This document shows, piece by piece, positions 1-41,264 of a stretch of 41,264 nt of DNA. This DNA comes from Escherichia phage 216Ecol046PP. The position numbers were made by a program, and so were the translations under genes. The notes under the pieces are model-generated. The model was given only the letters and a program-made list of their open reading frames with translations. It was not told the DNA's origin and did not search any database. Where the stretch lies: the sequence record PP328844.1; one strand, given 5' to 3'. The first letter of the stretch is position 1. Every line of letters begins with the position of its first letter.

Positions 1-179
1 TCTCACAGTTCAAGAACCTCAAGTCTCCCCATAGGCCCTCTTTAAGTCCAGACCAAAGGCCCTACCCCAGTCTATCATAAGGTTAGACCGATGGTCAAGA
101 CTTCAGGTCAACGATAGGTCTAGGCTATGGCTTAGGGAAGAACGATAGGTGGTGACTATTGGTCTGTCTTTGAGTCTCT
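1..179 (+). repeat. Terminal repeat copy 1 of 4 (179 bp, begins TCTCACAG as in T7)
   Basis: Read as identical to 501..679, 40586..40764 and 41086..41264 by direct comparison. Confidence 0.9.
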
Positions 180-401
180 GCAGATGACAATAAGGTAGTA
201 AGGTCGCTGAGGGCTTCCACTTCAGCAGGTCGGAAAGGTCCTAAAACCTAACGAGAGTCTGACCAGCTCGCCAAGTCTGCCACTGAGGTGGATAACCAGA
301 GGAGGCAACGTGTCGCCCACTGAGGGGCTACAGCTCACAGTTTAGGTTAACAGGCTAAACAAATGCTTGACAAGATGTAACGATAAGATGTAATATTTAC
401 C
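180..401 (+). repeat. Displaced duplicate of 1180..1401 (early promoter region) joined directly to a terminal repeat copy
   Basis: Read as identical to 1180..1401; junctions at 179/180 and 401/402. Confidence 0.85.
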
Positions 402-500
402 TGGTCTATCCTAGTGTCTCCTGACCTACGGTCCTTGACCTACAGTGGCTGTGGCCTACAGTAGTGACGATGAGTTTTGGACCAAAAGTTTGAGACCACA
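402..500 (+). repeat. Copy of genome right-end unique sequence (matches 40487..40585), forming a concatemer-type junction with the terminal repeat at 501
   Basis: Identity to the sequence immediately preceding the right terminal repeat. Confidence 0.85.
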
Positions 501-679
501 TCTCACAGTTCAAGAACCTCAAGTCTCCCCATAGGCCCTCTTTAAGTCCAGACCAAAGGCCCTACCCCAGTCTATCATAAGGTTAGACCGATGGTCAAGA
601 CTTCAGGTCAACGATAGGTCTAGGCTATGGCTTAGGGAAGAACGATAGGTGGTGACTATTGGTCTGTCTTTGAGTCTCT
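501..679 (+). repeat. Left terminal repeat of the genome unit
   Basis: 179-bp direct repeat; followed by left-end repeat arrays and early promoters as in T7. Confidence 0.9.
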
Positions 680-700
680 ATCTGTATCAGACCTTGAGTC

Positions 701-758
701 ACTACCTACAGTCTAACTACCTACAGTCTAACTACCTACAGTCTAACTACCTACAGTC
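701..758 (+). repeat. Tandem array of a 15-bp unit ACTACCTACAGTCTA (about 3.9 copies)
   Basis: Seen directly; positionally analogous to the short left-end repeat arrays of T7. Confidence 0.85.
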
Positions 759-1040
759 ATCGACCATCGGTAATGCTGCTACCTACAGTCTAAACCTACA
801 GTTAATAGACACAATGGCTATAGACTTAAGGTCTAAGACATGTTAGTCAAAGACTATATCCTCTTACACCATGGGGCCGACGATAGCTTAATCAATATTA
901 TCGACCATCGGTAATGCTGCTACCTACAGTCTAAACCTACAGTTAATAGACACAATGGCTATAGACTTAAGGTCTAAGACATGTTAGTCAAAGACTATAT
1001 CCTCTTACACCATGGGGCCGACGATAGCTTAATCAATATT
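759..1040 (+). repeat. Perfect tandem duplication of a 141-bp unit (759..899 and 900..1040)
   Basis: Two adjacent copies read as identical. Confidence 0.85.
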
Positions 1041-1055
1041 ATTTCAAATTACCTA

Positions 1056-1086
1056 TTGACTATAGGTCCAGACTATGGCCTAATAG
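1056..1086 (+). promoter_or_regulatory. Possible host sigma70 early promoter (TTGACT, then a weak -10)
   Basis: TTGACT at 1056..1061 followed by CTATAGG as in the T7 A1 context; -10 element is weak. Confidence 0.3.
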
Positions 1087-1366
1087 CTTCCGTCAACACG
1101 ACACGGCAACAACCGGATAGTGAAGACGCCGGTGTCATCCCGGTTAAGTAGACAGCCTGATAAGTCATACGAACAACAGGCAGATGACAATAAGGTAGTA
1201 AGGTCGCTGAGGGCTTCCACTTCAGCAGGTCGGAAAGGTCCTAAAACCTAACGAGAGTCTGACCAGCTCGCCAAGTCTGCCACTGAGGTGGATAACCAGA
1301 GGAGGCAACGTGTCGCCCACTGAGGGGCTACAGCTCACAGTTTAGGTTAACAGGCTAAACAAATGC

Positions 1367-1396
1367 TTGACAAGATGTAACGATAAGATGTAATAT
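1367..1396 (+). promoter_or_regulatory. Host sigma70 early promoter (TTGACA, 18-nt spacer, TAATAT)
   Basis: Near-consensus -35 and -10 hexamers upstream of the early genes; a second copy sits in the duplicate at 367..396. Confidence 0.6.
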
Positions 1397-1510
1397 TTAC
1401 CACATCGAAACAACGGTGATGACCAACACTGAAATGGTCTACCTGAAGTCCTCTGACTGAAGGGAATGCTCTTTAACAATCTGGATAAACTCTTAATGTG
1501 CGCCGATAGC

Positions 1511-2915: not shown

Positions 2916-3175
2916 TGAAAACCGTATACATTAACAAACCATCTAGCCATAGCCGTGTAGAGCAAATAGAGCGTGACATGTTCTTACATCGCCGCATGAG
3001 GGCTGAGGGCCATAAGTACGAACTGATGAGTCTGGCGTTTGGTGGACGACCGATCACTGACGATGGTAAACTTTTAGTCTCAGGCTGGAAGGCGATAGAC
3101 CAACGGTCAACCATCAAGCACACGACTCACGGTGACTTCAGCCATCTCCACGCTAACCCACTGATATGCAAGTGA
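2915..3175 (+). CDS. Hypothetical early protein (86 aa)
   Basis: ORF track; sits where T7 has gene 0.7, but is not a kinase. Confidence 0.45.
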   Translation: MKTVYINKPSSHSRVEQIERDMFLHRRMRAEGHKYELMSLAFGGRPITDDGKLLVSGWKAIDQRSTIKHTTHGDFSHLHANPLICK

Positions 3176-3183
3176 TTATGACT

Positions 3184-3203
3184 TAACTATCACTATAGGA
3201 CTC
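3184..3203 (+). promoter_or_regulatory. Phage RNAP promoter (TTAACTATCACTATAGGA) immediately upstream of the RNAP gene
   Basis: Matches the consensus repeated 11 times in the window. Confidence 0.7.
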
Positions 3204-7972: not shown

Positions 7973-8233
7973 ATGTCTAAGAACTTAATGTTCAACCGTT
8001 ATTCAAATACCTTCCACCTGTCCAACAACCCGTTCGCTTGCATTAAGCGCAACGAGAAGCTGGGCTACTTCGGGAAGGCCGTTAAGCTGTCACCTACAGT
8101 CTTCGCTCTGATTACTCCTGGAAAAGCTGAAGAGGCTCGCCAAAAGAGTGAGACCAACGTACATGTGGTCTACACCAAGTGGCCTCGCGTTCGTCTGTTT
8201 GTTGAGTTCGTGAAGGAGGTGATCAATGGTTAA
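7973..8233 (+). CDS. gp1.6-like hypothetical protein (86 aa)
   Basis: ORF track; position between ligase and gp1.7. Confidence 0.5.
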   Translation: MSKNLMFNRYSNTFHLSNNPFACIKRNEKLGYFGKAVKLSPTVFALITPGKAEEARQKSETNVHVVYTKWPRVRLFVEFVKEVING

Positions 8234-8666
8234 GGTGGGGGATACAGTTGCATATGTTGGACCAGTTGAAGCCTACATGGGACGCTACTGTGGCAAGGTG
8301 ATAGTGGTTAAGAATGAGCATGTAGCTGTTGTTAAGTGGCCCGGTTTATCTGAACCACGCAGTCACTCCATTAGCTCCTTAAGTATTACCAATCAGGCTC
8401 AGTCCGAGCCGACAACCATAGGTCAGGGAGATAGCGTCCGTAAGCCGTCGTACTATCAGGTATTTGACGGAGTGGAGTCCATTGAGATTATCGCTCGGTC
8501 CATGACTGTCAGCGAGTTCCGTGGGTTCTGCATGGGTAACGTCCTGAAGTATCGACTCCGAGCTGGTAAGAAGTCCGAGCTGGCTACTATGGAGAAGGAC
8601 CTAAACAAAGCAGCCTTCTACCAGGAGCTGTTCGACCTGCATAAAGGTAAGTGTTATGACGCGTGA
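8226..8666 (+). CDS. 1.7: gp1.7-like nucleotide kinase (146 aa)
   Basis: C-terminal half matches T7 gp1.7 (KPS.Y..FD..E.IE.IARSMTV..F.G.C.GN.LKYRLRAGKKSELA..EKDL.KA.FY.ELF..HK.KCY). Confidence 0.8.
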   Translation: MVKVGDTVAYVGPVEAYMGRYCGKVIVVKNEHVAVVKWPGLSEPRSHSISSLSITNQAQSEPTTIGQGDSVRKPSYYQVFDGVESIEIIARSMTVSEFRGFCMGNVLKYRLRAGKKSELATMEKDLNKAAFYQELFDLHKGKCYDA

Positions 8667-10334: not shown

Positions 10335-10786
10335 CTACCTGTAAAGACCTTGAAGTTGGAACACGTTACAGATTCTCAAAGAACACCCTGCTGAATAACC
10401 CCCAATTCACTGATGCTGTTTTCGAAAAGCGAGAAGACCATAGCGTAATTGTGGAGAAGGGATGGCATCCTGAGGATTACATCGGTGAGACTACCAGCTG
10501 GAATGGTCACGAGACCTACAGTGTAGAAGTTGTTGAACAGCCTCAAGTCCTGCCAGCTTCGAGCGTACCTCCTGTGACTGTGAAGCGTGAAGTCCTGACA
10601 ATCGACAAGATTGGTGTAGGCCAGACGTTCATCGTCCATGGAAAGCCTGAAGAAGTTTACGTGAAGATTAGCAACTCACACGTCTTCAACCATAAGCGTC
10701 TCCAGATGCACACAACGGACGCACAACGCTTCACCCAGCACCTGAATCTAGTGGTCGTAGAATTGGTGGTGTACAATGGTAAGTAA
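10331..10786 (+). CDS. Hypothetical protein (151 aa) between endonuclease I and lysozyme
   Basis: ATG at 10331 with RBS AAGAAAGGAG; T7 has no gene at this position. Confidence 0.55.
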   Translation: MTTCKDLEVGTRYRFSKNTLLNNPQFTDAVFEKREDHSVIVEKGWHPEDYIGETTSWNGHETYSVEVVEQPQVLPASSVPPVTVKREVLTIDKIGVGQTFIVHGKPEEVYVKISNSHVFNHKRLQMHTTDAQRFTQHLNLVVVELVVYNGK

Positions 10787-11542: not shown

Positions 11543-11722
11543 ATGGTTACAGTTATTCTAGTTCTAACGCTTATCAGTGGTAGTGGGCAAACTATCAGCC
11601 AAGTACCTATAACAGCGCCAACATTACAGGACGCATTCACAATATGTGACCAGTCCGGCTCAAAGTGGGCCGATAAGTTTGGCGATGTCTCAAACGTTGC
11701 AGCAGGGTATGAGTGTATTTAA
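11543..11722 (+). CDS. Hypothetical small protein (59 aa) with signal-peptide-like N-terminus
   Basis: RBS TAAGGAGTGACC; MVTVILVLTLISGSG N-terminus. Confidence 0.35.
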   Translation: MVTVILVLTLISGSGQTISQVPITAPTLQDAFTICDQSGSKWADKFGDVSNVAAGYECI

Positions 11723-11732
11723 GGAGTGACCA

Positions 11733-13818
<2,086 letters not shown>

Positions 13819-14047: not shown

Positions 14048-16219
14048 ATGTTTGACCTTAAGAGTATCTGGGGTTCTGACATCGAGACCAACGGTCTCCT
14101 TGATACAGTCTCCCAGTTTCACTGTGGGGTCCTGATTAACGCCGAGTCGAATGAGACCCTTAAGTATGGGGTAGCTCCGATGGTCGGTATCGTCGGCGGC
14201 TTCAAAGAGTATGTTCATAAAGTGGAAGAGATTGCAGCCTCACCTGATGGTATGCTGGTATTCCATAACGGTATCAACTATGACGTCCCGGCTATAGACA
14301 AGCTGAAGCGTTTGTACTTTGGGAAACGCTTTAACTTCCCGAAACATAAGATGATTGATACCTTGGTGCTGGGACGCTTGATGTATCCAAACATTAAGTT
14401 CTCAGACATGGGCGCAGTGAAAGCTGGTCGTCTGCCACCTAAGATGATGGGACGCCAGTCTCTTGAGGCTTGGGGCTATCGTCTCGGTGAGATGAAAGGT
14501 GAGTACAAACACGATTACGTTGCCAAGTGCAAGGCTGAAGGTATCGAATATAAGGCTGGGGACGAATGGTTGTTCCCGTCTCAGGAGATGCTGGACTATA
14601 ACGTTCAAGACGTTGTGGTCACACTGGCGTTGTTCAAGAAGTTCCTGACTGACAAGTATTACTTCCAGTCTGAACAGTTCGCTTTCGACCAGATTTATGC
14701 GTTGCGTCTGGAACATGATGCTGCGTGGACCTGTGCGAAGATGGAGCGTAACGGCTATCCGATGAACACCGAGATGGTCGAAGGCTTATATCGTGAACTA
14801 ACAGTCAAACGTGCAGAGCTGCTGGACAAGCTGCGTTCGACTTTCGGTAGCTGGTATGCACCGAAGGGAGGCAAGGAGTTCTTCAGGCACCCACGGACAG
14901 GAAAGGACCTCCCGAAGTATCCGCGAGTCGTGTATCCTAAGGTTGGGTCAGTATTCAAGAAGCCGAAGAACAAAGCTCAACGCTTAGGTCTGGAGCCTTG
15001 CGAGTTCGACTCACGAGACACGATGGAAGGAGCACCATTCACGCCAATCACTTACGTTGAGTTTAATCCGGGAAGCGGAGACCACTTAGCGAAAGTCTTG
15101 ATGGAGCGTGGTTGGGAGCCTGTGGACTTCACTGACACTGGGAAACCTGTAGTCGATGACGAGACGTTAGAACACGTTAAGTTACCGGACGCAGAGGCTC
15201 AGGCTTGCGTAGAGCTGGTCCGTGAGTATCTGGTAGTCCAGAAGCGCATAGGTCAGGCTGCTGAAGGTAAGAACGCATGGTTGAAACTTGTAGGTCCAGA
15301 CGGGCGTATGCACGGTTCAATCAACCCATGCGGGGCAGTAACCGGACGTGCGACTCACAGTTCACCAAACATGGCTCAGGTTCCGGCTAACGGTGCTCCA
15401 TACGGTGAGACTTGCCGTGGTGCTTTCGGTGCAGCGTGGAACAAGAAGGACGGTAAGCCAGACCCTTGGATTCAAGTAGGCGTGGATGCTTCAGGTCTTG
15501 AGCTTCGTTGTCTGGGGAACCGAGCGGCTCCGTTTGATGGTGGTGCCTATGCGAAGACTGTGGTAGAAGGTGACATCCACTGGGCCAACGCAGTAAACGC
15601 TGGGTTAGCACCTAACGTCCCACGCGATAAGTCGAACCACTACCATGATGCTTTCCGTAACAACGCTAAGACGTTCATCTATGCGTTCCTGTATGGTGCA
15701 GGGGCCGCTAAGATTGGACTGATAGTAGGCGGTGGTAAGAAGGAAGGTTCAGCTCTCATGAAGAAATTCATTGAGGGTACACCAGCTATTAAAGACCTCA
15801 GGGAAGCTGTGAGTAATACGTTAATCTCAGACTCTAAGTGGATAGATGGTGAGAACATCGTGAAGTGGAAACGACGCTGGCTGAAAGGTCTGGACGGTCG
15901 ACGCATTCACATCCGGTCGCCACACTCAGCACTGAACGCATTACTTCAGGGTGATGGTGCGGTAGTCTGTAAGCACTGGATTGTCGAGACCGAGCGTATG
16001 CTTGAAGAGGCCGGGTATGTTCACGGCTGGGAAGGTGACTTTGCGTACATGGCTTGGGTTCACGATGAGCTGCAAATTGCGTGTCGTACTCAGGAGATTG
16101 CCGAAGAAGTCGTCAAGATTGCTCAACTTGCTATGCGTAAGGTGGGCGAGTTCTATAACTTTAAATGCGTCCTTGACACCGAAGGGAAGATTGGACCAAC
16201 GTGGAAGGAGTGCCATTGA
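14048..16219 (+). CDS. 5: DNA polymerase (gp5 homologue), 723 aa
   Basis: Collinear similarity to T7 DNA polymerase (DIETNGL exo motif, NVQDVVVT, DASGLELRCL, YGFLYGAG, VHDE). Confidence 0.96.
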   Translation: MFDLKSIWGSDIETNGLLDTVSQFHCGVLINAESNETLKYGVAPMVGIVGGFKEYVHKVEEIAASPDGMLVFHNGINYDVPAIDKLKRLYFGKRFNFPKHKMIDTLVLGRLMYPNIKFSDMGAVKAGRLPPKMMGRQSLEAWGYRLGEMKGEYKHDYVAKCKAEGIEYKAGDEWLFPSQEMLDYNVQDVVVTLALFKKFLTDKYYFQSEQFAFDQIYALRLEHDAAWTCAKMERNGYPMNTEMVEGLYRELTVKRAELLDKLRSTFGSWYAPKGGKEFFRHPRTGKDLPKYPRVVYPKVGSVFKKPKNKAQRLGLEPCEFDSRDTMEGAPFTPITYVEFNPGSGDHLAKVLMERGWEPVDFTDTGKPVVDDETLEHVKLPDAEAQACVELVREYLVVQKRIGQAAEGKNAWLKLVGPDGRMHGSINPCGAVTGRATHSSPNMAQVPANGAPYGETCRGAFGAAWNKKDGKPDPWIQVGVDASGLELRCLGNRAAPFDGGAYAKTVVEGDIHWANAVNAGLAPNVPRDKSNHYHDAFRNNAKTFIYAFLYGAGAAKIGLIVGGGKKEGSALMKKFIEGTPAIKDLREAVSNTLISDSKWIDGENIVKWKRRWLKGLDGRRIHIRSPHSALNALLQGDGAVVCKHWIVETERMLEEAGYVHGWEGDFAYMAWVHDELQIACRTQEIAEEVVKIAQLAMRKVGEFYNFKCVLDTEGKIGPTWKECH

Positions 16220-21956: not shown

Positions 21957-23006
21957 ATGGCAAACGTTCCGGGTCAGAAAGTTGGTACAGACCAAGGTAA
22001 AGGCAAATCTGGTTCCGACGCTCTTGCGTTGTTCCTGAAGGTATTTGCTGGCGAAGTCCTGACCGCATTCACTCGCCGCTCTGTAACTGCTGACAAGCAT
22101 ATTGTCCGTACCATTCAGAACGGTAAGTCTGCTCAGTTCCCGGTCATGGGTCGCACCTCTGGTGTGTATCTGGCTCCGGGTGAGCGACTGTCCGATAAGC
22201 GTAAAGGTATCAAACATACCGAGAAAGTGATTACCATTGATGGTCTGCTGACTGCCGATGTGATGATTTTCGACATTGAAGACGCGATGAACCACTATGA
22301 CGTGGCTGGCGAGTACTCCAACCAGTTGGGCGAAGCTCTGGCTATCGCTGCCGATGGTGCGGTACTGGCTGAGATGGCTATTCTGTGTAACCTACCGGCT
22401 GCATCTGATGAAAACATCGCTGGTCTTGGCAAAGCGTCTGTGCTGGAAGTTGGTACTAAAGCCGACCTGAACACTCCGGCTAAGCTGGGTGAAGCAATCA
22501 TCGGTCAACTGACCATTGCTCGTGCGAAGCTGACATCCAACTACGTTCCTGCTGGCGACCGTTACTTCTACACCACGCCGGACAACTACTCTGCGATTCT
22601 GGCTGCTTTGATGCCTAACGCTGCTAACTACGCTGCTCTGATTGACCCTGAGACGGGCAACATCCGTAACGTAATGGGCTTCGTTGTGGTTGAGGTTCCG
22701 CACCTGACTCAGGGTGGTGCTGGTGAGACTCGTGGTGACGATGGTATCACTATCGCTTCCGGTCAGAAACACGCATTCCCAGCGACTTCTAGCGAGACCG
22801 TTAAGGTTGCTCTGGACAACGTTGTGGGTCTGTTCTCTCACCGTTCTGCGGTTGGTACCGTTAAACTGCGTGACTTGGCGCTGGAACGTGACCGTGACGT
22901 CGATGCTCAGGGCGACCTGATTGTTGGTAAGTACGCTATGGGTCACGGTGGTCTGCGTCCTGAAGCAGCGGGCGCACTGGTTTTCACAGCAGCGTCAGCG
23001 GGTTAA
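21957..23006 (+). CDS. 10A: Major capsid protein 10A
   Basis: Collinear similarity to T7 gp10A (DKRKGIKHTEKVITIDGLLTADV.I.DIEDAMNHYDV, ALMPNAANYAALIDPE, KYAMGHGGLRPEAAG). Confidence 0.96.
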   Translation: MANVPGQKVGTDQGKGKSGSDALALFLKVFAGEVLTAFTRRSVTADKHIVRTIQNGKSAQFPVMGRTSGVYLAPGERLSDKRKGIKHTEKVITIDGLLTADVMIFDIEDAMNHYDVAGEYSNQLGEALAIAADGAVLAEMAILCNLPAASDENIAGLGKASVLEVGTKADLNTPAKLGEAIIGQLTIARAKLTSNYVPAGDRYFYTTPDNYSAILAALMPNAANYAALIDPETGNIRNVMGFVVVEVPHLTQGGAGETRGDDGITIASGQKHAFPATSSETVKVALDNVVGLFSHRSAVGTVKLRDLALERDRDVDAQGDLIVGKYAMGHGGLRPEAAGALVFTAASAG

Positions 23007-23269
23007 CGACCTTTAAGGCCCTCTCTACCGAGGGTCCTACCTTAGAGACGTATAGTTCTACGGTGGGAACCAGCTTGAAGGTTGACTTCCCGGAGCTTTC
23101 AGATGTGACCGACTGGTCGCTGCTTGATGTTACTACGCCTGATGGTGTTAGTTACTCCCGTAGAACCAACAGTCTCTACTTCAAGGCCACCTCTGGCGTG
23201 GAAGGTCTAGTGATTGTTGAGTATGACGGTTCGCCTGTGCGTTCCTTCAACGTATCTTTCACAAACTAA
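21957..23269 (+). CDS. 10B: Minor capsid protein 10B, produced by a -1 frameshift near the 3' end of 10A (predicted)
   Basis: G GTT TTC at 22979..22985 as in the T7 gene 10 frameshift site; the -1 frame stays open from there to TAA 23267..23269. Confidence 0.55.
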
Positions 23270-23273
23270 TTGA

Positions 23274-23314
23274 AACCCCTTGGGTGCCTTCGGGTGCTTG
23301 AGGGGTTTTTTTTG
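23274..23314 (+). terminator. T-phi-like late terminator
   Basis: AACCCCTTGGG...TTGAGGGGTTTTTTTTG, close to the T7 T-phi hairpin plus U-run. Confidence 0.85.
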
Positions 23315-23328
23315 CTTAAGGAGGGACT

Positions 23329-23415
23329 ATGGTCCTTATTTACACAGGGTTAGCACTATTCGTCTTATTCTGGGCGTACCTTCTGTCCAGCTCACCGTCT
23401 AGTGCCTATGACCGT
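23329..23415 (+). CDS. Possible small hydrophobic peptide ORF (28 aa) after the terminator
   Basis: RBS TTAAGGAGGG; very short, speculative. Confidence 0.2.
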
Positions 23416-23430
23416 TAAGGAGTAAAACCT

Positions 23431-29771: not shown

Positions 29772-32700
29772 ATGGCGACTCGTGGTATTCGCAATAACAA
29801 TCCGGGTAACATCCGGGTAAGTAAGGACCAATGGGAAGGAATGACTGGAGATGATGGCGCATTCGTCACCTTCGATAGTCCAGAGTCTGGCGTCCGAGCT
29901 TTAGGTAAAAACCTGCTGTCCTACGGTCGCCAAGGTTATGATTCCATCGAGAAGATTATCAACAGATGGGCACCTCCTAACGAGAACGACACTAAGGCTT
30001 ATATTGACTCAGTGGTGGCTGCAACTGGTATTCCAGCTACACAGAGTCTCGACCTATCGGACCCTGACACCCTGTCTTCTCTGGCACAAGCTATCAGCTT
30101 CCATGAGACAGGCTCACGGTACGACCCTGAAGTCTATCAGAAGGGAGTCGCACGGGCACTCAACGGCATTAGCCCAAAGACTCCACCAGTAAGCGCTAAC
30201 GTATTTGACGCACTCACGGAAGGACTCAAGGCTAAACCTAAAGTAGCTCTGGGTGAGAACCTTCCGACCGCTGCTGGTCTGAACATTGAGGGTCAAGCAC
30301 TTGAAGCTCCCAACGAATCGTTCGGTGAGATGTTCTATAAGGCTACTGGAGAGACCATGCAGGAGCAAGAGGACCGCTCTACGTGGTTCGGTTTCGGTGC
30401 GGCTACAGAAGCTGAAGTGAAGAACTCTATGGTCGGCGTGGCTATACGAGCTGGTCAGACTGAGGACTCACTGGATGTCATTGGCGATGTGTTCAACCCA
30501 ACCCGATGGAACAACCATAAGTGGACTCGTGAGGAGCTAGACCAGATTCGTAACGCTGGGGTTTTGCCTCAGTATTACGGAGTCATTACTGGTGGCTCTC
30601 CTCAGAACCTGACTGAGCTTATTAACTTGGCGCTTGAGAACCAGAAGTTGGACCAAGAGAAGGCCAAGGCCGGGACTGGCGCCCAACTGGCGGCTGGTGT
30701 GATTGGTGCTGGCGTGGACCCTCTGACCTACGTTCCTATTGCTGGGCAGGTAGGTAAGGGCGGGAAGCTAATCAACAAGATGTTCACTGTGGCTGCTCAG
30801 TCTGGTGCTCTGGCTGGGGCATCCGAGATTGCTCGAACCTCAGTTGCTGGTGGGGACGCTCATGTGGCTGAGGCAATTATGGGCGGTGCTCTCTTCGGTG
30901 GGGGAATGACAGCTATCGGGGACGCTATCGGCAAGGCCTTAGGCAAGTCAACCAACGAGTTCGCCGGGCCAGCCACACGTCTGGAAGCCCGTGAGACTGC
31001 ACGTAATGTTGATGGTCAGGACCTGTCGCGTATGCCAATCCGTGAAGGAGAGGAGACCTTTAGTCACCAAGGCGTTAAGTTCGCTGACGTGCCGAATGAG
31101 CCGGGAAGTGTACGATTAGAAGACGGTTCAATCCTGATTGGTGAGAACCCTCTGAACCCTAAGACACGTCAGGTCTTTGACGAAGTGATTGAGCCTGAAC
31201 GGGCCGCTGCTGGTGTGAACCTTGGTGGTCTGACTGAGATTGGTCTGAAGCTGCTTCGGTCTGAGAACCCGGAGATTCGTGGAGTAGCTGCTGACTTAGT
31301 GCGTTCACCGACTGGTATGCAGTCTGGGGCCTCAGGTAAAATCGGGACCACTGCGTCTGACGTATTCGAGAGACTTCGTGCTGTAGACCATCGGTTCTAC
31401 AACGACATCGACGATGCTGTTACTGAGGCACTCAAGGACCCTTACTTCCAGACAGCATTCTGGCGAGACTCTGGAGCATTCCGTCAGGACATCTACCAGC
31501 GCGTGTCTATGGCTATCGAAGATGGTAGCGGAAATCTGAAGGCTGAACTGACTCCTGGAGAACTGAAAGTCTATGACCTACTGAAGAACCAGTTTGACGC
31601 CAAGCGTGAGATGATGGAGAACCCGGCGATGTTTGGTCGTCCAGACGCTCAGTCTATCTTTCCGGGCAGCCGCTTCAAGGGAACATACGTCCCGCATGTG
31701 TATAGCAACCAGATGAAGGAGCTGTACATCAAGGAGCTTGGGAGTCCAGAGGCACTACAGGAGGCCATCAAGAAGTCATGGTTGACCAGCTATGCGTCTC
31801 GACCTGAGGTCAAGAAACGTGTGGACGAGGCACTCTTAGAGGCTGACCCTACGTTGACTCCAGAAGGACTTGCGGCTGCTGTCGATAAGTACGCCAACGA
31901 TAAGGCTTATGGTATCTCTCACACCGAGCAGTTCGAGCGTTCATCCGTAATGGAAGAGAACATCAATGGTCTGGTTGGTCTGGAGAACAACAGCTTCCTT
32001 GAGGCTCGTAACCTGTTCGATAGCGATATGTCAATCGTCCTACCTAACGGTCAGACCTTCAGTGTCAACAACCTGCGTGAGTGGGACATGGACAAGATTG
32101 TCCCGGCCTACAACCGTCGAGTTAATGGCGATATTGCTATCATGGCTGGTACAGGCAAGACCACGAAGGACATGAAGGACTTGGTTGAGACCATGATGAA
32201 CAAGGCTGGGGATGACGGTAAGTTGAAAGGTGAAGTATCTACCTTACGTGACACCTTGAAGATTCTAACTGGCCGTGCTCGACGTGATGGTGCTGATGAT
32301 GCAGCCTTCGCTACCGTGATGCGCACAATGACAGACCTATCGTTCTTCGCTAAGAATGCCTATATGGGTGTTCAGAACTTAACGGAGATTGGTGGTATGC
32401 TGGCCCGTGGTAACGTTCGTGCAATGCTGCATGGAGTCCCAATTTTCCGTGACCTAGCCTTCCGTAACAAGAAAGTTGGGGCCTCAGAGATTAAGGACCT
32501 GCACAATGTTATCTTTGGTAAGGAGCTGGATGACTCAATCCGTCCGTCTAAACAGGATGTCATTGACCGTCTGCGATCTTACAGTGACCTCGGTCGTGGT
32601 ACAGCTACAGCTCTGGGGACTGCCAAGTATTACACTGGCGAACTTGCAGTACGCTCTCCGTTCACTAAAGTCCTCAACGGTACGACCAACTACCTGTTAG

Positions 32701-33659
32701 ATGCTGGACGTCAAGGCTTCCTGTCTGACATCGTGGAGCATAGCCTGACTGGTAGTAAGCGTAAGTTCGATGACCGCTGGCTTAAGACCGCTGGTATCTC
32801 TGACGAGCAGTGGAAGGGCATTAAGTCACTCATCCGTGAGTCAGTGACTCGTGGTCCAGACGGGAAGTACACCATTAAGGATAAGAAGGCGTTCAGTCAG
32901 GACCCAAGGGCTATGGACCTGTGGCGTATGGGTGATACCATCGCTGACGAAACGTTACTACGTCCTCATAAGCTGTCCAACATGGACGCAAAGGCTTATG
33001 GTCCTCTCACTAAGACTGTCCTTCAGTTTAAGAACTTCGTCATCAAGTCCATCAATGGACGTACCATGCGAACCTTCTATAACGCCACGAAGAACAACCG
33101 AGCGATGGACGCTGCCCTGTCCACTGTGATCTCTATGGGTCTTGCTGGTATCTACTACATGGCTCAGGCTCATGTCAAGGCTTACGCTATGCAGGATGGT
33201 CGAGACCGTGACTACCTCAAGCAAGCTCTAGACCCGACGATGATTGGATATGCAGCTCTATCACGTAGTTCACACCTTGGTGGACCACTTGGGGTAGCTA
33301 ACATTCTTGGTGGCATCGCTGGGTATGAGGACACTAAGATGCTCCGTTCGTCTATCCTACCTCGTTCGCCCACAGAGAAGCCTGAACGTGCCATCGCGTA
33401 TGGTGCAGCTACAAGTGACCCTGTGATGAATGTTGTTGGTAACTTCTTGGAGCAGGTTCCAGCTTTCGGATATGCTGCTAACGTTGGTGCTTCGGCTTAT
33501 AACTTGGCTGGCTACCTGAAGGCCGACACTCGGGTAAACGAGCGAGACTACATGACCGGGATGTATAACACCTTCCGTGAACTGGTTCCGAACGACCCGA
33601 TTACTCAGAAGTTGCTACTGGGAACGTTTGAGGAGCAAGGTATCCACATCAAGGACTAA
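29772..33659 (+). CDS. 16: Internal virion protein D (gp16 homologue), 1295 aa
   Basis: Collinear with T7 gp16 from about residue 200 (FFGF..A.EAE, GDIAIMG.TGKTTK, LRPHK, NNRA.DAALS, VPNDP.TQ); N-terminal ~130 aa differ. Confidence 0.93.
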   Translation: MATRGIRNNNPGNIRVSKDQWEGMTGDDGAFVTFDSPESGVRALGKNLLSYGRQGYDSIEKIINRWAPPNENDTKAYIDSVVAATGIPATQSLDLSDPDTLSSLAQAISFHETGSRYDPEVYQKGVARALNGISPKTPPVSANVFDALTEGLKAKPKVALGENLPTAAGLNIEGQALEAPNESFGEMFYKATGETMQEQEDRSTWFGFGAATEAEVKNSMVGVAIRAGQTEDSLDVIGDVFNPTRWNNHKWTREELDQIRNAGVLPQYYGVITGGSPQNLTELINLALENQKLDQEKAKAGTGAQLAAGVIGAGVDPLTYVPIAGQVGKGGKLINKMFTVAAQSGALAGASEIARTSVAGGDAHVAEAIMGGALFGGGMTAIGDAIGKALGKSTNEFAGPATRLEARETARNVDGQDLSRMPIREGEETFSHQGVKFADVPNEPGSVRLEDGSILIGENPLNPKTRQVFDEVIEPERAAAGVNLGGLTEIGLKLLRSENPEIRGVAADLVRSPTGMQSGASGKIGTTASDVFERLRAVDHRFYNDIDDAVTEALKDPYFQTAFWRDSGAFRQDIYQRVSMAIEDGSGNLKAELTPGELKVYDLLKNQFDAKREMMENPAMFGRPDAQSIFPGSRFKGTYVPHVYSNQMKELYIKELGSPEALQEAIKKSWLTSYASRPEVKKRVDEALLEADPTLTPEGLAAAVDKYANDKAYGISHTEQFERSSVMEENINGLVGLENNSFLEARNLFDSDMSIVLPNGQTFSVNNLREWDMDKIVPAYNRRVNGDIAIMAGTGKTTKDMKDLVETMMNKAGDDGKLKGEVSTLRDTLKILTGRARRDGADDAAFATVMRTMTDLSFFAKNAYMGVQNLTEIGGMLARGNVRAMLHGVPIFRDLAFRNKKVGASEIKDLHNVIFGKELDDSIRPSKQDVIDRLRSYSDLGRGTATALGTAKYYTGELAVRSPFTKVLNGTTNYLLDAGRQGFLSDIVEHSLTGSKRKFDDRWLKTAGISDEQWKGIKSLIRESVTRGPDGKYTIKDKKAFSQDPRAMDLWRMGDTIADETLLRPHKLSNMDAKAYGPLTKTVLQFKNFVIKSINGRTMRTFYNATKNNRAMDAALSTVISMGLAGIYYMAQAHVKAYAMQDGRDRDYLKQALDPTMIGYAALSRSSHLGGPLGVANILGGIAGYEDTKMLRSSILPRSPTEKPERAIAYGAATSDPVMNVVGNFLEQVPAFGYAANVGASAYNLAGYLKADTRVNERDYMTGMYNTFRELVPNDPITQKLLLGTFEEQGIHIKD

Positions 33660-33675
33660 ACTATCACTATAGGAA
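33656..33675 (+). promoter_or_regulatory. Phage RNAP promoter (phi17-like)
   Basis: GACTAAACTATCACTATAGGAAAC. Confidence 0.8.
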
Positions 33676-33723
33676 ACTGGAGGCGCTACCATAGGTCTCC
33701 GTTTAAATAACAAAGGAGGCATA

Positions 33724-36700
33724 ATGTCCACGATTACACAATTCCCTTCAGGAAACACTCAGTACAGGATTGAGTTCGACTACCTAGCCAGAACGTTTGT
33801 TGTTGTTACGCTGGTGAATAGCTCTAACCCTACCCTGAACCGTGTACTGGAAGTTGGTCGAGATTACCGATTCCTTAATCCAACGATGATTGAGATTTTG
33901 GTTGACCAATCAGGTTTCGACATCGTTCGTATTCACCGTCAGACTGGAACTGACTTAGTGGTAGACTTCAGGAATGGCTCAGTGTTGACAGCTAGTGACC
34001 TGACCAATTCAGAGCTTCAGGCTATCCATATTGCAGAAGAAGGTCGAGACCAAACGGTTGACTTAGCGAAGGAATATGCCGATGCTGCTGGTAGCTCTGC
34101 TGGCAACGCTAAGGATAGCGAGGACGAAGCACGCCGAATCGCTGAGAGTATCAGGGCAGCTGGTCTAATTGGCTATATGACCCGTCGCTCCTTCGAGAAA
34201 GGCTACAACGTTACAACATGGAGCGAGGTCCTGCTATGGGAAGAGGATGGTGATTATTACCGCTGGGATGGTACGCTTCCAAAGAACGTTCCTGCTGGTT
34301 CAACTCCTGAAACTTCCGGTGGGATTGGATTAGGTGCGTGGGTTAGTGTTGGTGATGCTGCTTTAAGAAGTCAGATTTCAAATCCTGAAGGGGCAATACT
34401 CTACCCTGAATTACATAGAGCACGCTGGCTTGATGAAAAAGATGTTCGTGGTTGGGGTGCTAAAGGGGATGGTGTCACTGATGATACAGCAGCATTAACG
34501 AGAGCATTAAACGAAACACCGGTTGGACAAAAGATTAATGGCAATGGGGGAACATATAAGGTCACATCCCTGCCTGACATTAGTAGATTCGTTAATACTC
34601 GTTTTGTATATGAACGTATTCCTGGTCAGCCGCTTTATTATGTCTCTGAAGAATTTGTTCAAGGTGAACTGTTTAAAATAACGGACACCCCTTATTACAA
34701 TGCGTGGCCACAGGATAAAGCGTTCGTTTACGATGATGTTATTTACTGCCCGTTCATGGCTGGTGATAGACATGGGGTCAGTCGTCTGCATGTATCATGG
34801 GTTAAGTCTGGTGACGATGGTCAAACATGGTCTACCCCAGAGTGGTTAACTGATCTGCATCCAGATTACCCTACAGTGAACTATCATTGTATGAGTATGG
34901 GTGTATGTCGCAACCGTCTGTTTGCCATGATTGAAACACGTACTTTAGCCAAGAACGCACTAACCAATTGTGCATTGTGGGATCGCCCTATGTCTCGTAG
35001 TCTGCATCTTACTGGTGGTATCACTAAGGCTGCAAATCAGAGATATGCAACAATCCATGTACCTGATCACGGACTATTCGTGGGCGATTTTGTTAACTTC
35101 TCTAATTCTGCGGTAACAGGTGTATCAGGTGATATGACTGTTGCAACGGTAATAGATAAGGACAACTTCACGGTTCTTACACCTAACCAGCAGACTTCAG
35201 ATTTGAATAACGCTGGAAAGAGTTGGCACATGGGTACTTCTTTCCATAAGTCTCCATGGCGTAAGACAGATCTTGGTCTAATCCCTCGTGTCACAGAGGT
35301 GCATAGCTTTGCTACTATTGATAACAATGGCTTTGTTATGGGCTATCATCAAGGTGATGTAGCTCCACGAGAAGTTGGTCTTTTCTACTTCCCAGATGCT
35401 TTCAATAGCCCATCTAATTATGTTCGTCGTCAGATACCAGCTGAGTATGAACCAGATGCGGCAGAGCCATGCATCAAGTACTATGACGGTGTATTATACC
35501 TTATCACTCGTGGTACTCGTGGCGACCGACTAGGAAGCTCTTTGCATCGTAGTAGAGATATAGGTCAGACTTGGGAGTCACTGAGATTTCCACATAATGT
35601 TCATCATACTACCTTACCTTTTGCTAAAGTAGGAGATGACCTTATTATGTTTGGTTCAGAACGTGCAGAAAATGAATGGGAAGCAGGTGCACCAGATGCT
35701 CGTTACAAGGCATCTTATCCTCGTACCTTCTATGCACGATTGAATGTAAACAAGTGGAGTGCAGATGATATTGAATGGGTTAACATCACAGACCAAATCT
35801 ATCAGGGTGACATTGTTAACTCAGGTGTAGGTGTTGGTTCGGTAGTTGTGAAGGATAATTACATCTACTACATGTTTGGTGGAGAGGACCATTTTAACCC
35901 ATGGACATATGGCGATAACTCAGCGAAAGACCCATTCAAATCGGATGGTCACCCCTCGGATTTGTATTGCTACAAAATGAAGATTGGCCCAGACAATCGT
36001 GTTTCCAGAGATTTCAGATATGGTGCTGTACCCAACAGAGCTGTTCCCGTGTTTTTTGATACGAATGGGATTCGCACTGTTCCTGCGCCAATGGAATTTA
36101 CAGGGGATTTGGGTTTAGGTCATGTGACCATTAGAGCCAGCACCAGTAGTAACATTCGCTCTGAAGTTTTAATGGAAGGTGAATATGGGTTTATCGGGAA
36201 GTCTATACCGACTGATAACCCGGCAGGGCAGCGCACCATATTTTGCGGGGGTGAAGGCACCAGTTCAACGACTGGCGCACAGATTACGCTTTATGGTGCA
36301 AATAACACCGACTCAAGGCGAATAGTTTACAATGGTGATGAGCATCTGTTCCAGACTGCTGACGTTAAGCCTTATCACGATAACGTCATTGCGCTTGGTG
36401 GACCAAGTAACCGTTTCACAACTGCATATCTCGGAAGCAACCCTATTGTTACTTCTAATGGGGGGAAGAAAACAGAGCCGGTAGTTTTTGATGATGCTTT
36501 CCTAGATGCCTGGGGTGACGTTCACTACATCATGTATCAATGGTTAGATGCTGTTCAACTGAAAGGCAATGATGCTCGTATTCACTTCGGGGTTATTGCC
36601 CAGCAAATTCGTGATGTATTCATTGCACACGGTCTGATGGATGAAAACAGTACGAATTGTCGTTATGCCGTTCTGTGCTATGACAAGTATCCACGGATGA

Positions 36701-36918
36701 CCGATACGGTATTTTCGCACAATGAAATCATTGAACACACTGACGAGGAGGGCAATGTCACTACTACGGAAGAGCCTGTATTCACTGAGGTGGTTATCCA
36801 TGAAGAGGGTGAGGAGTGGGGTGTTCGGCCTGACGGAATTTTCTTTGCTGAAGCCGCTTATCAGAGAAGAAAACTGGAAAGAATCGAAGCCAGACTTTCT
36901 GCTCTTGAACAGAAGTAA
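33724..36918 (+). CDS. 17: Tail fibre/tailspike: T7 gp17-like N-terminal anchor fused to a capsule-depolymerase (endosialidase-type) module with C-terminal chaperone domain, 1064 aa
   Basis: N-terminal ~150 aa resemble T7 gp17 (F.YLAR.FVVVTL..., LVDF..GS.L.A.DL); size and layout match what I recall of the K1F endo-N-acetylneuraminidase; AT-richer central region. Confidence 0.88.
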   Translation: MSTITQFPSGNTQYRIEFDYLARTFVVVTLVNSSNPTLNRVLEVGRDYRFLNPTMIEILVDQSGFDIVRIHRQTGTDLVVDFRNGSVLTASDLTNSELQAIHIAEEGRDQTVDLAKEYADAAGSSAGNAKDSEDEARRIAESIRAAGLIGYMTRRSFEKGYNVTTWSEVLLWEEDGDYYRWDGTLPKNVPAGSTPETSGGIGLGAWVSVGDAALRSQISNPEGAILYPELHRARWLDEKDVRGWGAKGDGVTDDTAALTRALNETPVGQKINGNGGTYKVTSLPDISRFVNTRFVYERIPGQPLYYVSEEFVQGELFKITDTPYYNAWPQDKAFVYDDVIYCPFMAGDRHGVSRLHVSWVKSGDDGQTWSTPEWLTDLHPDYPTVNYHCMSMGVCRNRLFAMIETRTLAKNALTNCALWDRPMSRSLHLTGGITKAANQRYATIHVPDHGLFVGDFVNFSNSAVTGVSGDMTVATVIDKDNFTVLTPNQQTSDLNNAGKSWHMGTSFHKSPWRKTDLGLIPRVTEVHSFATIDNNGFVMGYHQGDVAPREVGLFYFPDAFNSPSNYVRRQIPAEYEPDAAEPCIKYYDGVLYLITRGTRGDRLGSSLHRSRDIGQTWESLRFPHNVHHTTLPFAKVGDDLIMFGSERAENEWEAGAPDARYKASYPRTFYARLNVNKWSADDIEWVNITDQIYQGDIVNSGVGVGSVVVKDNYIYYMFGGEDHFNPWTYGDNSAKDPFKSDGHPSDLYCYKMKIGPDNRVSRDFRYGAVPNRAVPVFFDTNGIRTVPAPMEFTGDLGLGHVTIRASTSSNIRSEVLMEGEYGFIGKSIPTDNPAGQRTIFCGGEGTSSTTGAQITLYGANNTDSRRIVYNGDEHLFQTADVKPYHDNVIALGGPSNRFTTAYLGSNPIVTSNGGKKTEPVVFDDAFLDAWGDVHYIMYQWLDAVQLKGNDARIHFGVIAQQIRDVFIAHGLMDENSTNCRYAVLCYDKYPRMTDTVFSHNEIIEHTDEEGNVTTTEEPVFTEVVIHEEGEEWGVRPDGIFFAEAAYQRRKLERIEARLSALEQK

Positions 36919-37052
36919 TAAACAAAACCCTTTTGCCATTAAGTTGGTGGGGTAGATGTTAGAAGGTTGTGGAGGTAGAGGCTAACTACACGCTAAACAA
37001 CATAGGGTAACAACTTTGGGTCACGGACGACCCGCTTTAAACTGGAGGTTTT

Positions 37053-40423: not shown

Positions 40424-40585
40424 TACTGTAGTCAAGGACTTTAGGTAACACCTTAAGAGAAGCTCACTTAGGGTCATCCTACTTATTGGTCTATCCTAGT
40501 GTCTCCTGACCTACGGTCCTTGACCTACAGTGGCTGTGGCCTACAGTAGTGACGATGAGTTTTGGACCAAAAGTTTGAGACCACA

Positions 40586-40764
40586 TCTCACAGTTCAAGA
40601 ACCTCAAGTCTCCCCATAGGCCCTCTTTAAGTCCAGACCAAAGGCCCTACCCCAGTCTATCATAAGGTTAGACCGATGGTCAAGACTTCAGGTCAACGAT
40701 AGGTCTAGGCTATGGCTTAGGGAAGAACGATAGGTGGTGACTATTGGTCTGTCTTTGAGTCTCT
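40586..40764 (+). repeat. Right terminal repeat of the genome unit
   Basis: Identical to 501..679. Confidence 0.9.
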
Positions 40765-41085
40765 ATCTGTATCAGACCTTGAGTCACTACCTACAGTCTA
40801 ACTACCTACAGTCTAACTACCTACAGTCTAACTACCTACAGTCATCGACCATCGGTAATGCTGCTACCTACAGTCTAAACCTACAGTTAATAGACACAAT
40901 GGCTATAGACTTAAGGTCTAAGACATGTTAGTCAAAGACTATATCCTCTTACACCATGGGGCCGACGATAGCTTAATCAATATTATCGACCATCGGTAAT
41001 GCTGCTACCTACAGTCTAAACCTACAGTTAATAGACACAATGGCTATAGACTTAAGGTCTAAGACATGTTAGTCAAAGACTATAT
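40765..41085 (+). repeat. Copy of left-end unique sequence 680..1000 following the right terminal repeat (concatemer-type continuation)
   Basis: Identity to 680..1000 including the 15-bp array and part of the 141-bp duplication. Confidence 0.85.
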
Positions 41086-41264
41086 TCTCACAGTTCAAGA
41101 ACCTCAAGTCTCCCCATAGGCCCTCTTTAAGTCCAGACCAAAGGCCCTACCCCAGTCTATCATAAGGTTAGACCGATGGTCAAGACTTCAGGTCAACGAT
41201 AGGTCTAGGCTATGGCTTAGGGAAGAACGATAGGTGGTGACTATTGGTCTGTCTTTGAGTCTCT
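41086..41264 (+). repeat. Fourth terminal repeat copy, joined to an internal point of the left-end region
   Basis: Identical to the terminal repeat; junction at 41085/41086 breaks collinearity with 1001 onward. Confidence 0.85.

Follow-up and report, generated by a model that had tools for sequence, protein, structure and literature searches.

The gene at positions 33724..36918 (+ strand) of the 41,264-nt stretch of Escherichia phage 216Ecol046PP analysed here in its entirety (PP328844.1; hereafter the window) is, with a probability of roughly 97%, gene 17 of a K1F-like Kayfunavirus and would encode the precursor of the homotrimeric endoNF tailspike, a modular chimera. No evidence contradicting this K1F-like endoNF reading was found. 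Gene and structure are already known, as are the maturation by means of the chaperone and the origin as a chimera; they have been the subject of repeated publications since 1993-2010, and T7 versus K1F is the type example of this spike exchange in the literature. Recently, the K1F tailspike was also scanned mutation by mutation (PMC13564897).

Identification and genomic context of gene 17

The list of open reading frames contains gene 17 as an ATG-initiated frame of 1064 aa plus stop codon, at the position and with the length given in an earlier note on this DNA. The note had also given an equal length for the K1F enzyme, which is in line with the 3195 nt and 1064 aa of K1F gene 17. Both genes share 95.9% nucleotide and 96.9% amino acid identity with zero indels over 1064 aa, and the identity to gene 17 of PhiNW-B1 reaches 98.4% at the nucleotide level. 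The likeness to K1F gp17/endoNF includes the domain order as well as the catalytic and autocleavage residues. It extends to the genomic context: the gene lies between genes 16 and 17.5, its flanks are conserved, and the gene order 16-17-17.5-18 of the window is the same as in K1F. The window is collinear with K1F-like phages over its whole length (93-97% nucleotide identity) and represents the complete genome of a K1F-like Kayfunavirus.

The tail spike protein family PHROG 1171 aligns to aa 5-1064 of the gene 17 product, and seven Pfam domains scored above their curated cutoffs in the order known from endoNF. Crystal structures with ~97% identity span aa 245-1064, while the structures 9vvr and 9lna are close matches over aa 1-265. 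Nested and antisense open reading frames within gene 17 (e.g. 36544..36939, minus strand, 131 aa) were regarded as chance occurrences, since a 1064-aa protein of known structure fully accounts for the gene.

A promoter-like motif of the phage-RNA-polymerase type, ACTATCACTATAGGAAAC, is located just upstream of gene 17 at 33660..33677 (+ strand) and overlaps the stop codon of gene 16. Ten copies of this motif with at most three mismatches were detected on the + strand of the window compared to 0.04 expected by chance, and the flank containing it is conserved with K1F. Its function as a promoter is putative and presumed from the T7-group consensus. Between 33500 and 37300, a sigma-70 promoter scan revealed 7 promoter-like sites compared to 7.2 in shuffled sequences, and a scan for intrinsic terminators revealed 1 terminator-like site compared to 2.8.

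Modular architecture of the predicted tailspike

The first ~140 aa (33724..34143, + strand) correspond to the N-terminal anchor of T7 gp17. Pfam Phage_T7_tail (PF03906) matches aa 10-115 with 58.9 bits (cutoff 25.2), and structures of the T7 gp17 N-terminus (7boz and 8dsp) align at aa 6-116 (E=1.2e-15 for 7boz). As had been proposed, the resemblance to T7 gp17 is restricted to this tail-attachment domain; similarity was not detected past aa ~116-140. The same anchor is common to other Kayfunaviruses with unrelated spikes, with ~95-97% nucleotide identity over nt 1-635 or 1-759 of the gene. The C-terminal domain of T7 gp17 is not known to have enzymatic activity or a cleaved chaperone. It serves in the recognition and binding of lipopolysaccharide (PMC6872550).

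Between anchor and enzyme, a TSP-type N-terminal domain was detected at aa ~141-245 (34144..34458, + strand). It comprises a match to Pfam Tail_spike_N (PF18668; aa 156-211, 68.8 bits, cutoff 25) and is similar to the PDB entries 4oj5, 5w6f, 5w6h and 6nw9 with E-values of 1e-16 to 1e-22, residues 102-211 of 4oj5 (CBA120 TSP1) aligning with aa 155-264. The domain is an extra module with a putative role in this podovirus spike. Tailspikes of CBA120 and other Ackermannviridae (TSP1, TSP3, TSP4) share this small domain, but these spikes and that of YX22 lack the T7 anchor and sit on the branched baseplate of a myovirus that carries multiple spikes.

The enzyme, encoded like all modules on the + strand, starts with the endosialidase N-terminal extension (34459..34659; aa 246-312; PF12218, 126 bits). 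It is followed by the catalytic six-bladed beta-propeller (34660..35985; aa 313-754; PF12217, 732 bits), which carries the inserted beta-barrel (34993..35241; aa 424-506; PF12195, 160 bits), and by the stalk, a triple-beta-helix tail-spike domain with a predicted polysialic-acid binding site (35992..36453; aa 757-910; PF12219, 264 bits). All four domains are present in canonical order and above their curated thresholds of 24-35 bits, and the scores of propeller, barrel and stalk far exceed these values, in support of the endosialidase folds suspected in the earlier note. The comparison with endoNF suggested there returned E=0 for the structures 1v0e and 3gvl over aa 245-910, besides the 96.9% identity to K1F gp17. 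These alignments reach aa 910, and the crystallised endoNF fragment begins, in alignment, at aa 245/246. EndoNF (PDB 1v0e, 3gvl, 3ju4, 3gw6) belongs to glycoside hydrolase family 58. In the ungapped comparison, the active-site residues H350, R549, E581, R596 and R647 are identical to K1F, and R837 and Q853 of the stalk are retained. The five active-site residues are catalytic and intolerant to mutation (PMC13564897). Based on this sequence similarity, we regard the gene 17 product as the orthologue of the biochemically characterised K1F endo-N-acetylneuraminidase, and specificity for K1 capsules (alpha-2,8 polysialic acid) would consequently be its expected function. The nearest relatives were isolated on K1 hosts: 'E. 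coli K1 LU_100' yielded PhiNW-B1, and vB_EcoP_F was obtained on a strain of serotype O18ac:K1:H7.

Directly after the triple-beta-helix stalk, aa 911-1064 (36454..36915, + strand) represent the C-terminal intramolecular chaperone domain, with autocleavage predicted before S911. The chaperone-like segment of ~150 aa that had been noticed earlier is present and comprises 154 aa. PDB 3gw6 (endoNF-CTD) aligns at aa 790-1064 (E=5e-182), Pfam Peptidase_S74 (PF13884) at aa 921-971 (35.8 bits, cutoff 22) and the GA-1 neck appendage CIMCD 3gud at aa 915-1014 (E=1e-12). In the K1F record, aa 2-910 are annotated as mature gp17* and the remaining aa 911-1064 as gp17-CTD. S911, N912, K916 and G956 are kept in the window, and the only local changes compared to K1F are E914G and R915K, three to four residues past the scissile bond. 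The S911/K916 numbering of the dyad follows the K1F annotation and the numbering reported by Schulz et al. 2010. A Ser-Lys dyad is located at the cleavage site, and N912 and G956 are essential (PMC3742443). By extension of published K1F work, the spike of the window would undergo the same autocleavage.

Composition and mosaic structure of gene 17

Gene 17 has a GC content of 0.452 in a window of 0.496, and its GC content at third codon positions (GC3) is 0.377. The 31 other long open reading frames of the window show a GC3 of 0.553 ± 0.039 (range ~0.48-0.63, minimum 0.481), which corresponds to a z-score of -4.5 for gene 17. A fit with two change-points placed the lowest GC3 (0.30) at codons ~189-684 (~34290..35775), with the second change-point at codon 672-684; its likelihood was reached by 0 of 300 permutations. 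The flanking parts remain below the genome mean, with 0.48 on the N-terminal and 0.42 on the C-terminal side. Thus, the AT-richer codon usage described in the earlier note was confirmed but its limits were not: GC3 falls from codon ~189 onwards (nt ~34290) and not from 34400, and the GC-poor stretch proposed to extend over 34400..36450 is replaced by the shorter segment of the fit, with a C-terminal flank that is still low. As the anchor also has a low GC3, native and acquired sequence are not clearly told apart by composition alone.

The distribution of homologues shows sharp borders. The enzyme is shared with phages of unrelated groups, namely the Shuimuvirus IME207 (aa 141-1064, 91%), YX22 of the Ackermannviridae (aa 116-1064, 80% amino acid identity) and the Vectrevirus K1-5 (aa 234-1055, 71% amino acid identity). 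In Kayfunaviruses with other spikes, the match to gene 17 ends at nt 633-654 or 759-765, while it begins at nt 524 in IME207, at nt 562-565 in YX22 and at nt 717-723 in UE-M6 and IME392. The exchange junctions read from these alignments (nt 524-565, 633-654 and 717-765) and the GC3 step cluster in or beside the TSP-type domain, and not at a module border at aa 150 as had been assumed. Composition and the presence of homologues with sharp junctions in unrelated phage groups agree, and the horizontal origin of the non-anchor part, which the earlier note had postulated, is supported. The fusion of anchor and enzyme described there is a chimera indeed, but one of at least four modules instead of two, with the TSP-type domain between anchor and enzyme. 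The enzyme itself is mosaic. The fusion of anchor and enzyme is ancestral to the K1F-like phages and was formed outside the genome of the window; the direction of transfer and the number of events are not readable from these data.

Within the enzyme, a block with sharp edges at 34780..35816 (+ strand; gene nt 1057-2093) is ~98% identical to gp47 of K1-5 at the nucleotide level (22 mismatches), whereas 11-37 mismatches per 60 nt were counted outside of it. Sliding nucleotide identity to gp47 amounts to 97-100% in windows spanning aa 361-690, the block ends at codon ~698, and beyond it the identity is 45-76%. The catalytic part of K1-5 gp47 and K1E endoNE is homologous, with ~98% nucleotide identity in the propeller core, but the stalk and chaperone of gp47 are only 45-66% identical to the window gene. 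Unlike the spike of the window, gp47 contains neither the T7-type anchor nor the Tail_spike_N domain, and these Vectrevirus endosialidases are attached through an adaptor protein. K1-5 gp47 docks to its adaptor gp37 via a short N-terminal peptide (PMC6872550). At aa 271-390, the nucleotide identity to K1F falls to 84-88%, and over aa 271-360 the YX22 allele (92% nucleotide identity) is nearer than that of K1F; the propeller core of YX22 is only 65-74% identical to the window gene. The enzyme part is mosaic, with a K1-5-like propeller core and a patch of an Ackermannviridae-type allele beside H350.

Two Kayfunaviruses with unrelated spikes contain 3' remnants of endoNF. In PM131, the remnant corresponds to nt 2982-3195 of the query gene (95.8% identity) and is located downstream of the spike CDS; in ZG49, it comprises nt 2982-3021 and is downstream of the spike CDS as well as of another annotated CDS. 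A literature search did not reveal a description of an endoNF remnant in other Kayfunaviruses, which is no proof that such remnants are unreported. Together, the ~1.04-kb K1-5-like propeller stretch, the ~90-codon patch at H350 and the 3' remnants in sister Kayfunaviruses lead to the tentative speculation, which we consider somewhat doubtful, that the enzyme is a patchwork still being swapped in sub-domain pieces among at least four unrelated groups of K1 phages (Kayfunavirus, Vectrevirus, Shuimuvirus and Ackermannviridae). The underlying observations as such are solid.

Alternative explanations

The low GC3 could in principle reflect a local constraint (amino-acid composition, level of expression or mRNA structure, for instance) in a vertically inherited gene. 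This would fit to the observation that the entire gene is below the average GC3, including the genus-typical anchor, where aa 1-188 have values of 0.45-0.48 and hence lie at the lower end of the range of the genome or beneath it. It would also fit to the marginal support for a single intragenic change-point, as the best split after codon 188 was reached by 28 of 500 permutations. However, the anomaly concerns synonymous third positions, while GC1 (0.53-0.60) and GC2 (0.34-0.52) show no comparable depression across the gene, and the low-GC3 segment ends near an independently defined recombination block (codon 672-684 versus ~698). Moreover, ~98% identical DNA is present in a phage of another subfamily, and the endosialidase module has a similar GC3 in IME207 (0.39), YX22 (0.41) and K1-5 (0.32). 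There it is unremarkable, as the neighbouring genes have a GC content of ~42-46% (GC3 of 0.35-0.37 where measured). Local constraint is therefore a very improbable explanation compared to the acquisition of the enzyme part.

The allele of the window could also have shifted from the specificity or behaviour of K1F, for example towards O-acetylated K1, K92-type mixed linkages or an altered processivity. It differs from K1F by 33 amino acid substitutions, of which 25 are located in the catalytic part, four in the chaperone and four in the N-terminal 245 aa. Six of them (E337D, N338D, A342C, Y344F, G346A and S347G) cluster within aa 337-347, immediately ahead of H350, and I838T adjoins the stalk-site residue R837. 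In K1F, deep mutational scanning showed that the stalk and the loops of the beta-barrel tune the discrimination among K1 strains (PMC13564897). Against a shift stand the 96.9% overall identity and the described catalytic residues, all of which are unchanged. Furthermore, five of the six cluster changes are shared with the endosialidase of YX22, the recorded host of which is APEC IMT5155, and all six with PhiNW-B1, an isolate from a K1 strain; they hence represent natural variants among phages grown on pathogenic or K1 E. coli. We consider a shifted specificity improbable. Less easily dismissed, but still doubtful, is the possibility that in this Kayfunavirus clade the endosialidase represents the ancestral state of the spike and the other spikes are the newcomers, in which case horizontal acquisition would better describe the latter than the endosialidase. 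The remnants in PM131 and ZG49 show that a resident endoNF cassette was replaced; yet these scars order the events in these two sub-lineages only and are compatible with an earlier acquisition. A T7-type anchor combined with a shared enzyme still needs a transfer at some time, and the composition of the module is foreign to the Kayfunavirus backbone.

Proposed function and implications

In the preferred reading, a K1F-like endoNF tailspike, aa 1-~140 would fasten the trimer to the T7-type tail, followed by the small TSP-type N-terminal domain at aa ~141-245. The enzyme part would provide the active site in the beta-propeller, the beta-barrel and a stalk with further polysialic-acid binding sites, and cleavage of the capsule would allow the phage to tunnel to the outer membrane. 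The chaperone (aa 911-1064) would help the chains to trimerise and the triple-beta-helix stalk to fold and would then be lost by Ser911/Lys916-dependent autoproteolysis, which would leave a kinetically stable mature spike. With respect to its origin, the anchor would be inherited vertically within the genus, while the receptor-destroying part would stem from a pool common to unrelated K1 phages, and the chimera as such would have been inherited from the common ancestor of the K1F-like phages. The sequence itself shows the homologies, the limits of the domains, the conserved residues, the deviating composition and the mosaic junctions; from published K1F work we infer that the spike of the window is enzymatically active, undergoes cleavage and is specific for K1 hosts.

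For the annotation of this phage, the value of these results is that the window can be described as a predicted K1-capsule-specific K1F-like phage, which also provides a predicted host range. The fine map of junctions, comprising the exchange zone at the TSP-type domain, the propeller block shared with K1-5 and the endoNF scars of PM131 and ZG49, may be a small aid for the engineering of tailspikes. If the breakpoints were recurrent, they would constitute natural splice points for engineered chimeric depolymerases.

Gene 17 and its genomic context

The tailspike gene (gene 17) is the single long ORF at 33724..36918 on the plus strand, starting with ATG and encoding 1064 amino acids (aa), exactly where the earlier note had placed it. 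Its neighbours are a gene-16-type internal virion protein (29772..33659, 1295 aa) and small holin- and terminase-type ORFs; the gene order 16-17-17.5-18 and the conserved flanks on both sides of gene 17 correspond to phage K1F. Immediately upstream, a promoter-like motif (ACTATCACTATAGGAAAC, 33660..33677, plus strand) overlaps the gene 16 stop codon. Ten plus-strand copies of the motif ACTATCACTATAGG were detected in the window with up to three mismatches, compared to 0.04 by chance (starts at 3186, 6264, 7931, 9130, 17999, 20838, 21837, 26384, 33660 and 39918). By analogy with T7-group phages, the copy at 33660..33677 is probably a phage RNA-polymerase promoter, and the ten copies are presumably the promoters for this polymerase in the genome.

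A megablast search of gene 17 against 50,697 phage records yielded 29 in which 80% or more of its length is covered. Among the best were PhiNW-B1 (98.4% nucleotide identity, host 'E. coli K1 LU_100'), several K1-specific podoviruses and the K1F reference records (95.9%). The gene is annotated as endo-N-acetylneuraminidase or precursor of gp17 in the best-matching records. The window protein shares 96.9% aa identity with K1F gp17 (endoNF), with 33 substitutions and no indel, and matches the endoNF catalytic fragments 1v0e/3gvl at E=0 across aa 245-910. This supports the endosialidase reading of the earlier note, and by homology the protein belongs to the endoNF family and is essentially the same protein. 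Two records with endoNF genes of ~95% identity, PV615262.1 (hit H16, 'Acinetobacter phage vB_Aba_01KA') and MZ311862.1 (hit H19, listed host E. coli K-12 MG1655), carry host labels that look doubtful for a K1-capsule-dependent spike.

Since the sequence outside gene 17 is collinear with that of K1F-like Kayfunaviruses (93-97% nucleotide identity) and its right end matches that of K1F, the window is a complete K1F-like phage genome. Its termini are redundant (1..1401, 40487..41264): the 179-nt K1F-type terminal repeat is present in four 100% identical copies (1-179, 501-679, 40586-40764, 41086-41264), 402-1004 equals 40487-41089 (603 nt, 99.8%), 180-401 equals 1180-1401 (222 nt), and a unit of 143 nt occurs twice in tandem (759-901/900-1042). 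This probably reflects concatemer or assembly redundancy, and the unit genome would therefore be ~40.1-40.3 kb. The DNA polymerase gene of K1F is split by an insertion of ~600 nt (record positions 14932-15530), and its annotation joins gene 5 from two pieces with gp5.3 in between. The window lacks this insertion: its polymerase ORF (14048..16219, 723 aa) is uninterrupted, and the K1F insertion point lies near 16062/16064. Four stretches (11546..12087, 22995..23426, 8225..8489 and 10335..10543) had no blastn match to K1F and thus appear accessory or replaced relative to it.

Domain architecture and conserved residues

All Pfam domains assigned to the protein exceeded their curated cutoffs: Phage_T7_tail (aa 10-115), Tail_spike_N (aa 156-211), End_N_terminal (aa 246-312), End_beta_propel (aa 313-754) with End_beta_barrel inserted (aa 424-506), End_tail_spike (aa 757-910) and Peptidase_S74, the 'chaperone of endosialidase' (aa 921-971). 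The features of this spike type that can be read from sequence, namely endosialidase, S74 chaperone, T7 anchor and Tail_spike_N domain, were thus all found. Solved structures agree with this layout. The T7-like N-terminus proposed previously is borne out by the T7 gp17 structures 7boz/8dsp (aa 6-116), and aa 1-265 align with 9vvr, a recent structure of a 'tail spike protein' of 843 aa (E=7e-180).

The residues H350, R549, E581, R596 and R647, catalytic and mutation-intolerant in a deep mutational scan of endoNF (PMC13564897), are identical to K1F. The predicted autocleaved C-terminal chaperone agrees with the S74 domain, the match to endoNF-CTD 3gw6 across aa 790-1064 (E=5e-182) and the unchanged residues S911, N912, K916 and G956; a Ser-Lys dyad and essential N912 and G956 have been described for this cleavage (PMC3742443). 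In the K1F GenBank record, mature gp17* comprises aa 2-910 and the released gp17-CTD aa 911-1064. Three and four residues past the cleavage site we observed the substitutions E914G and R915K (36463..36468). At position 914, K1F, PhiNW-B1, IME207 and YX22 all have E and K1-5 has D, so G914 is found in none of these five, while K915 is common among them.

While homology, residue conservation and architecture were observed here, the mechanism follows published work on K1F. The C-terminal domain would nucleate the triple-beta-helix stalk and help the precursor to trimerise; after folding, the Ser911/Lys916 dyad would cut before S911 and release the chaperone (PMC3742443, PMC6872550 and the K1F annotation). 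The T7-type anchor would fix the mature spike to the tail. The spike would then bind and cleave alpha-2,8 polysialic acid through the propeller active site and the binding sites of barrel and stalk (PMC13564897), which would open the K1 capsule for infection.

Base composition

Gene 17 is a clear outlier among the long ORFs of the window, with a GC content of 0.452 (whole window 0.496) and a GC3 of 0.377 compared to 0.553 ± 0.039 (minimum 0.481) for the 31 others (z = -4.5). In 100-codon windows its GC3 falls to 0.23-0.27, while no other ORF drops below 0.39. A single change-point after codon 188 was marginal (reached by 28 of 500 permutations), whereas a model with two change-points was significant (0 of 300), with segments of 0.48, 0.30 and 0.42 and steps at codons ~184-189 and ~672-684. 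GC3 is below the genome average in all segments. Given this significant model and its central GC3 of 0.30, the AT-rich zone that had been described at 34400..36450 is real in substance. Its edges differ: the step lies at ~34290, ~110 nt earlier, and the deepest part ends at ~35775.

An additional N-terminal domain and exchange junctions

The segment aa ~141-245 is neither T7-like nor endosialidase. It shows homology to a small domain in the N-terminal part of tailspikes from Ackermannviridae, matching residues 102-211 of CBA120 TSP1 (4oj5) and, likewise, TSP3 and TSP4. This TSP-type domain is absent from the earlier account of a two-part fusion, in which the anchor and the enzyme with its chaperone hold, but the number of modules is four rather than two.

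Junctions in other phages cluster within this segment or at its edges. Kayfunaviruses with unrelated spikes, among them LM33_P1, EcoDS1 and Salmonella Typhi phages, share nt 1-633/635 of the gene (~95-97%), others nt 1-646/654 or 1-759/765 (ZG49, PM131, IME177). Conversely, the endosialidase genes of unrelated phages start matching at nt 524 (Shuimuvirus IME207), nt 562-565 (YX22, Ackermannviridae) or nt 717-723 (UE-M6, IME392). Protein-level matches cover aa 141-1064 in IME207 (91%), aa 116-1064 in YX22 (80%) and aa 234-1055 in K1-5 gp47 (71%). Since the ranges of shared-anchor and shared-enzyme phages overlap at nt ~524-635 (aa 175-211), both groups have this stretch. The first GC3 step falls here as well, and the stretch looks like a homologous zone where cassettes are exchanged. 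A fusion boundary thus exists as proposed, not at aa 150 or nt 34400 but in or beside the TSP-type domain, with the GC3 step at codon ~189.

Mosaicism within the enzyme

Sliding nucleotide identity on codon alignments and mismatch counts per bin indicate that the enzyme part is itself mosaic. Over ~1.04 kb of the beta-propeller (nt 1057-2093; 34780..35816; aa ~353-698), gp47 of K1-5, a Vectrevirus of a different subfamily, is ~98% identical (22 mismatches). The block has sharp edges, with 11-37 mismatches per 60 nt outside, and the rest of the gene is 45-76% identical. Stalk and chaperone show 45-66% nucleotide identity to K1-5, 94-96% to YX22 and 91-99% to K1F. As YX22 reaches just 65-74% over aa 361-720, it is near gene 17 where K1-5 is far, and the reverse. 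The high identity and sharp edges of the K1-5-identical block suggest that it arose by recent sub-domain exchange between K1 phages. The second GC3 step lies near its end (codon ~698).

In windows spanning aa 271-360, YX22 (92%) is a better match to gene 17 than K1F (84-88%). Six substitutions relative to K1F fall within 11 residues (aa 337-347; 34732..34764) just before the catalytic H350, five of them being YX22 residues (E337D, N338D, A342C, Y344F, G346A); PhiNW-B1 has the same patch with all six changes. GC3 of the enzyme module is 0.32-0.41 in K1-5, IME207 and YX22, and because neighbouring genes there have 42-46% GC, the composition of the module suits these genomes better than a Kayfunavirus backbone of ~50% GC.

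Probable replacement scars and the origin of the fusion

The Kayfunavirus PM131 possesses an unrelated spike of 843 aa whose chaperone domain is distantly similar to aa 881-1063 (30% identity). Past the stop codon of this spike gene, the 3' 214 nt of the endoNF gene are retained (query nt 2982-3195; L002 4043-4256; 95.8%), where a 'tail fiber protein' of 54 aa is annotated. ZG49 likewise retains 40 nt (L007 6252-6291), also starting at query nt 2982 and downstream of its own spike-region genes. Both remnants are homologous to parts of 36705..36918, and a two-piece match of this kind is seen in at least three more records. The remnants look like scars left when the cassette was replaced, with a common junction within the chaperone domain.

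The gene 17 finding as such is already known: PMC6872550 notes that the K1F endosialidase is related to those of K1-5 and phi92 across phage families, and K1F is treated likewise in PMC10408124, so the earlier interpretation, supported here together with its confirmed observation, reproduces the published view. In lineages of the PM131/ZG49 type the resident endoNF cassette has evidently been replaced. These comparisons indicate that cassette exchange goes both ways and that the fusion in the window is inherited rather than new.
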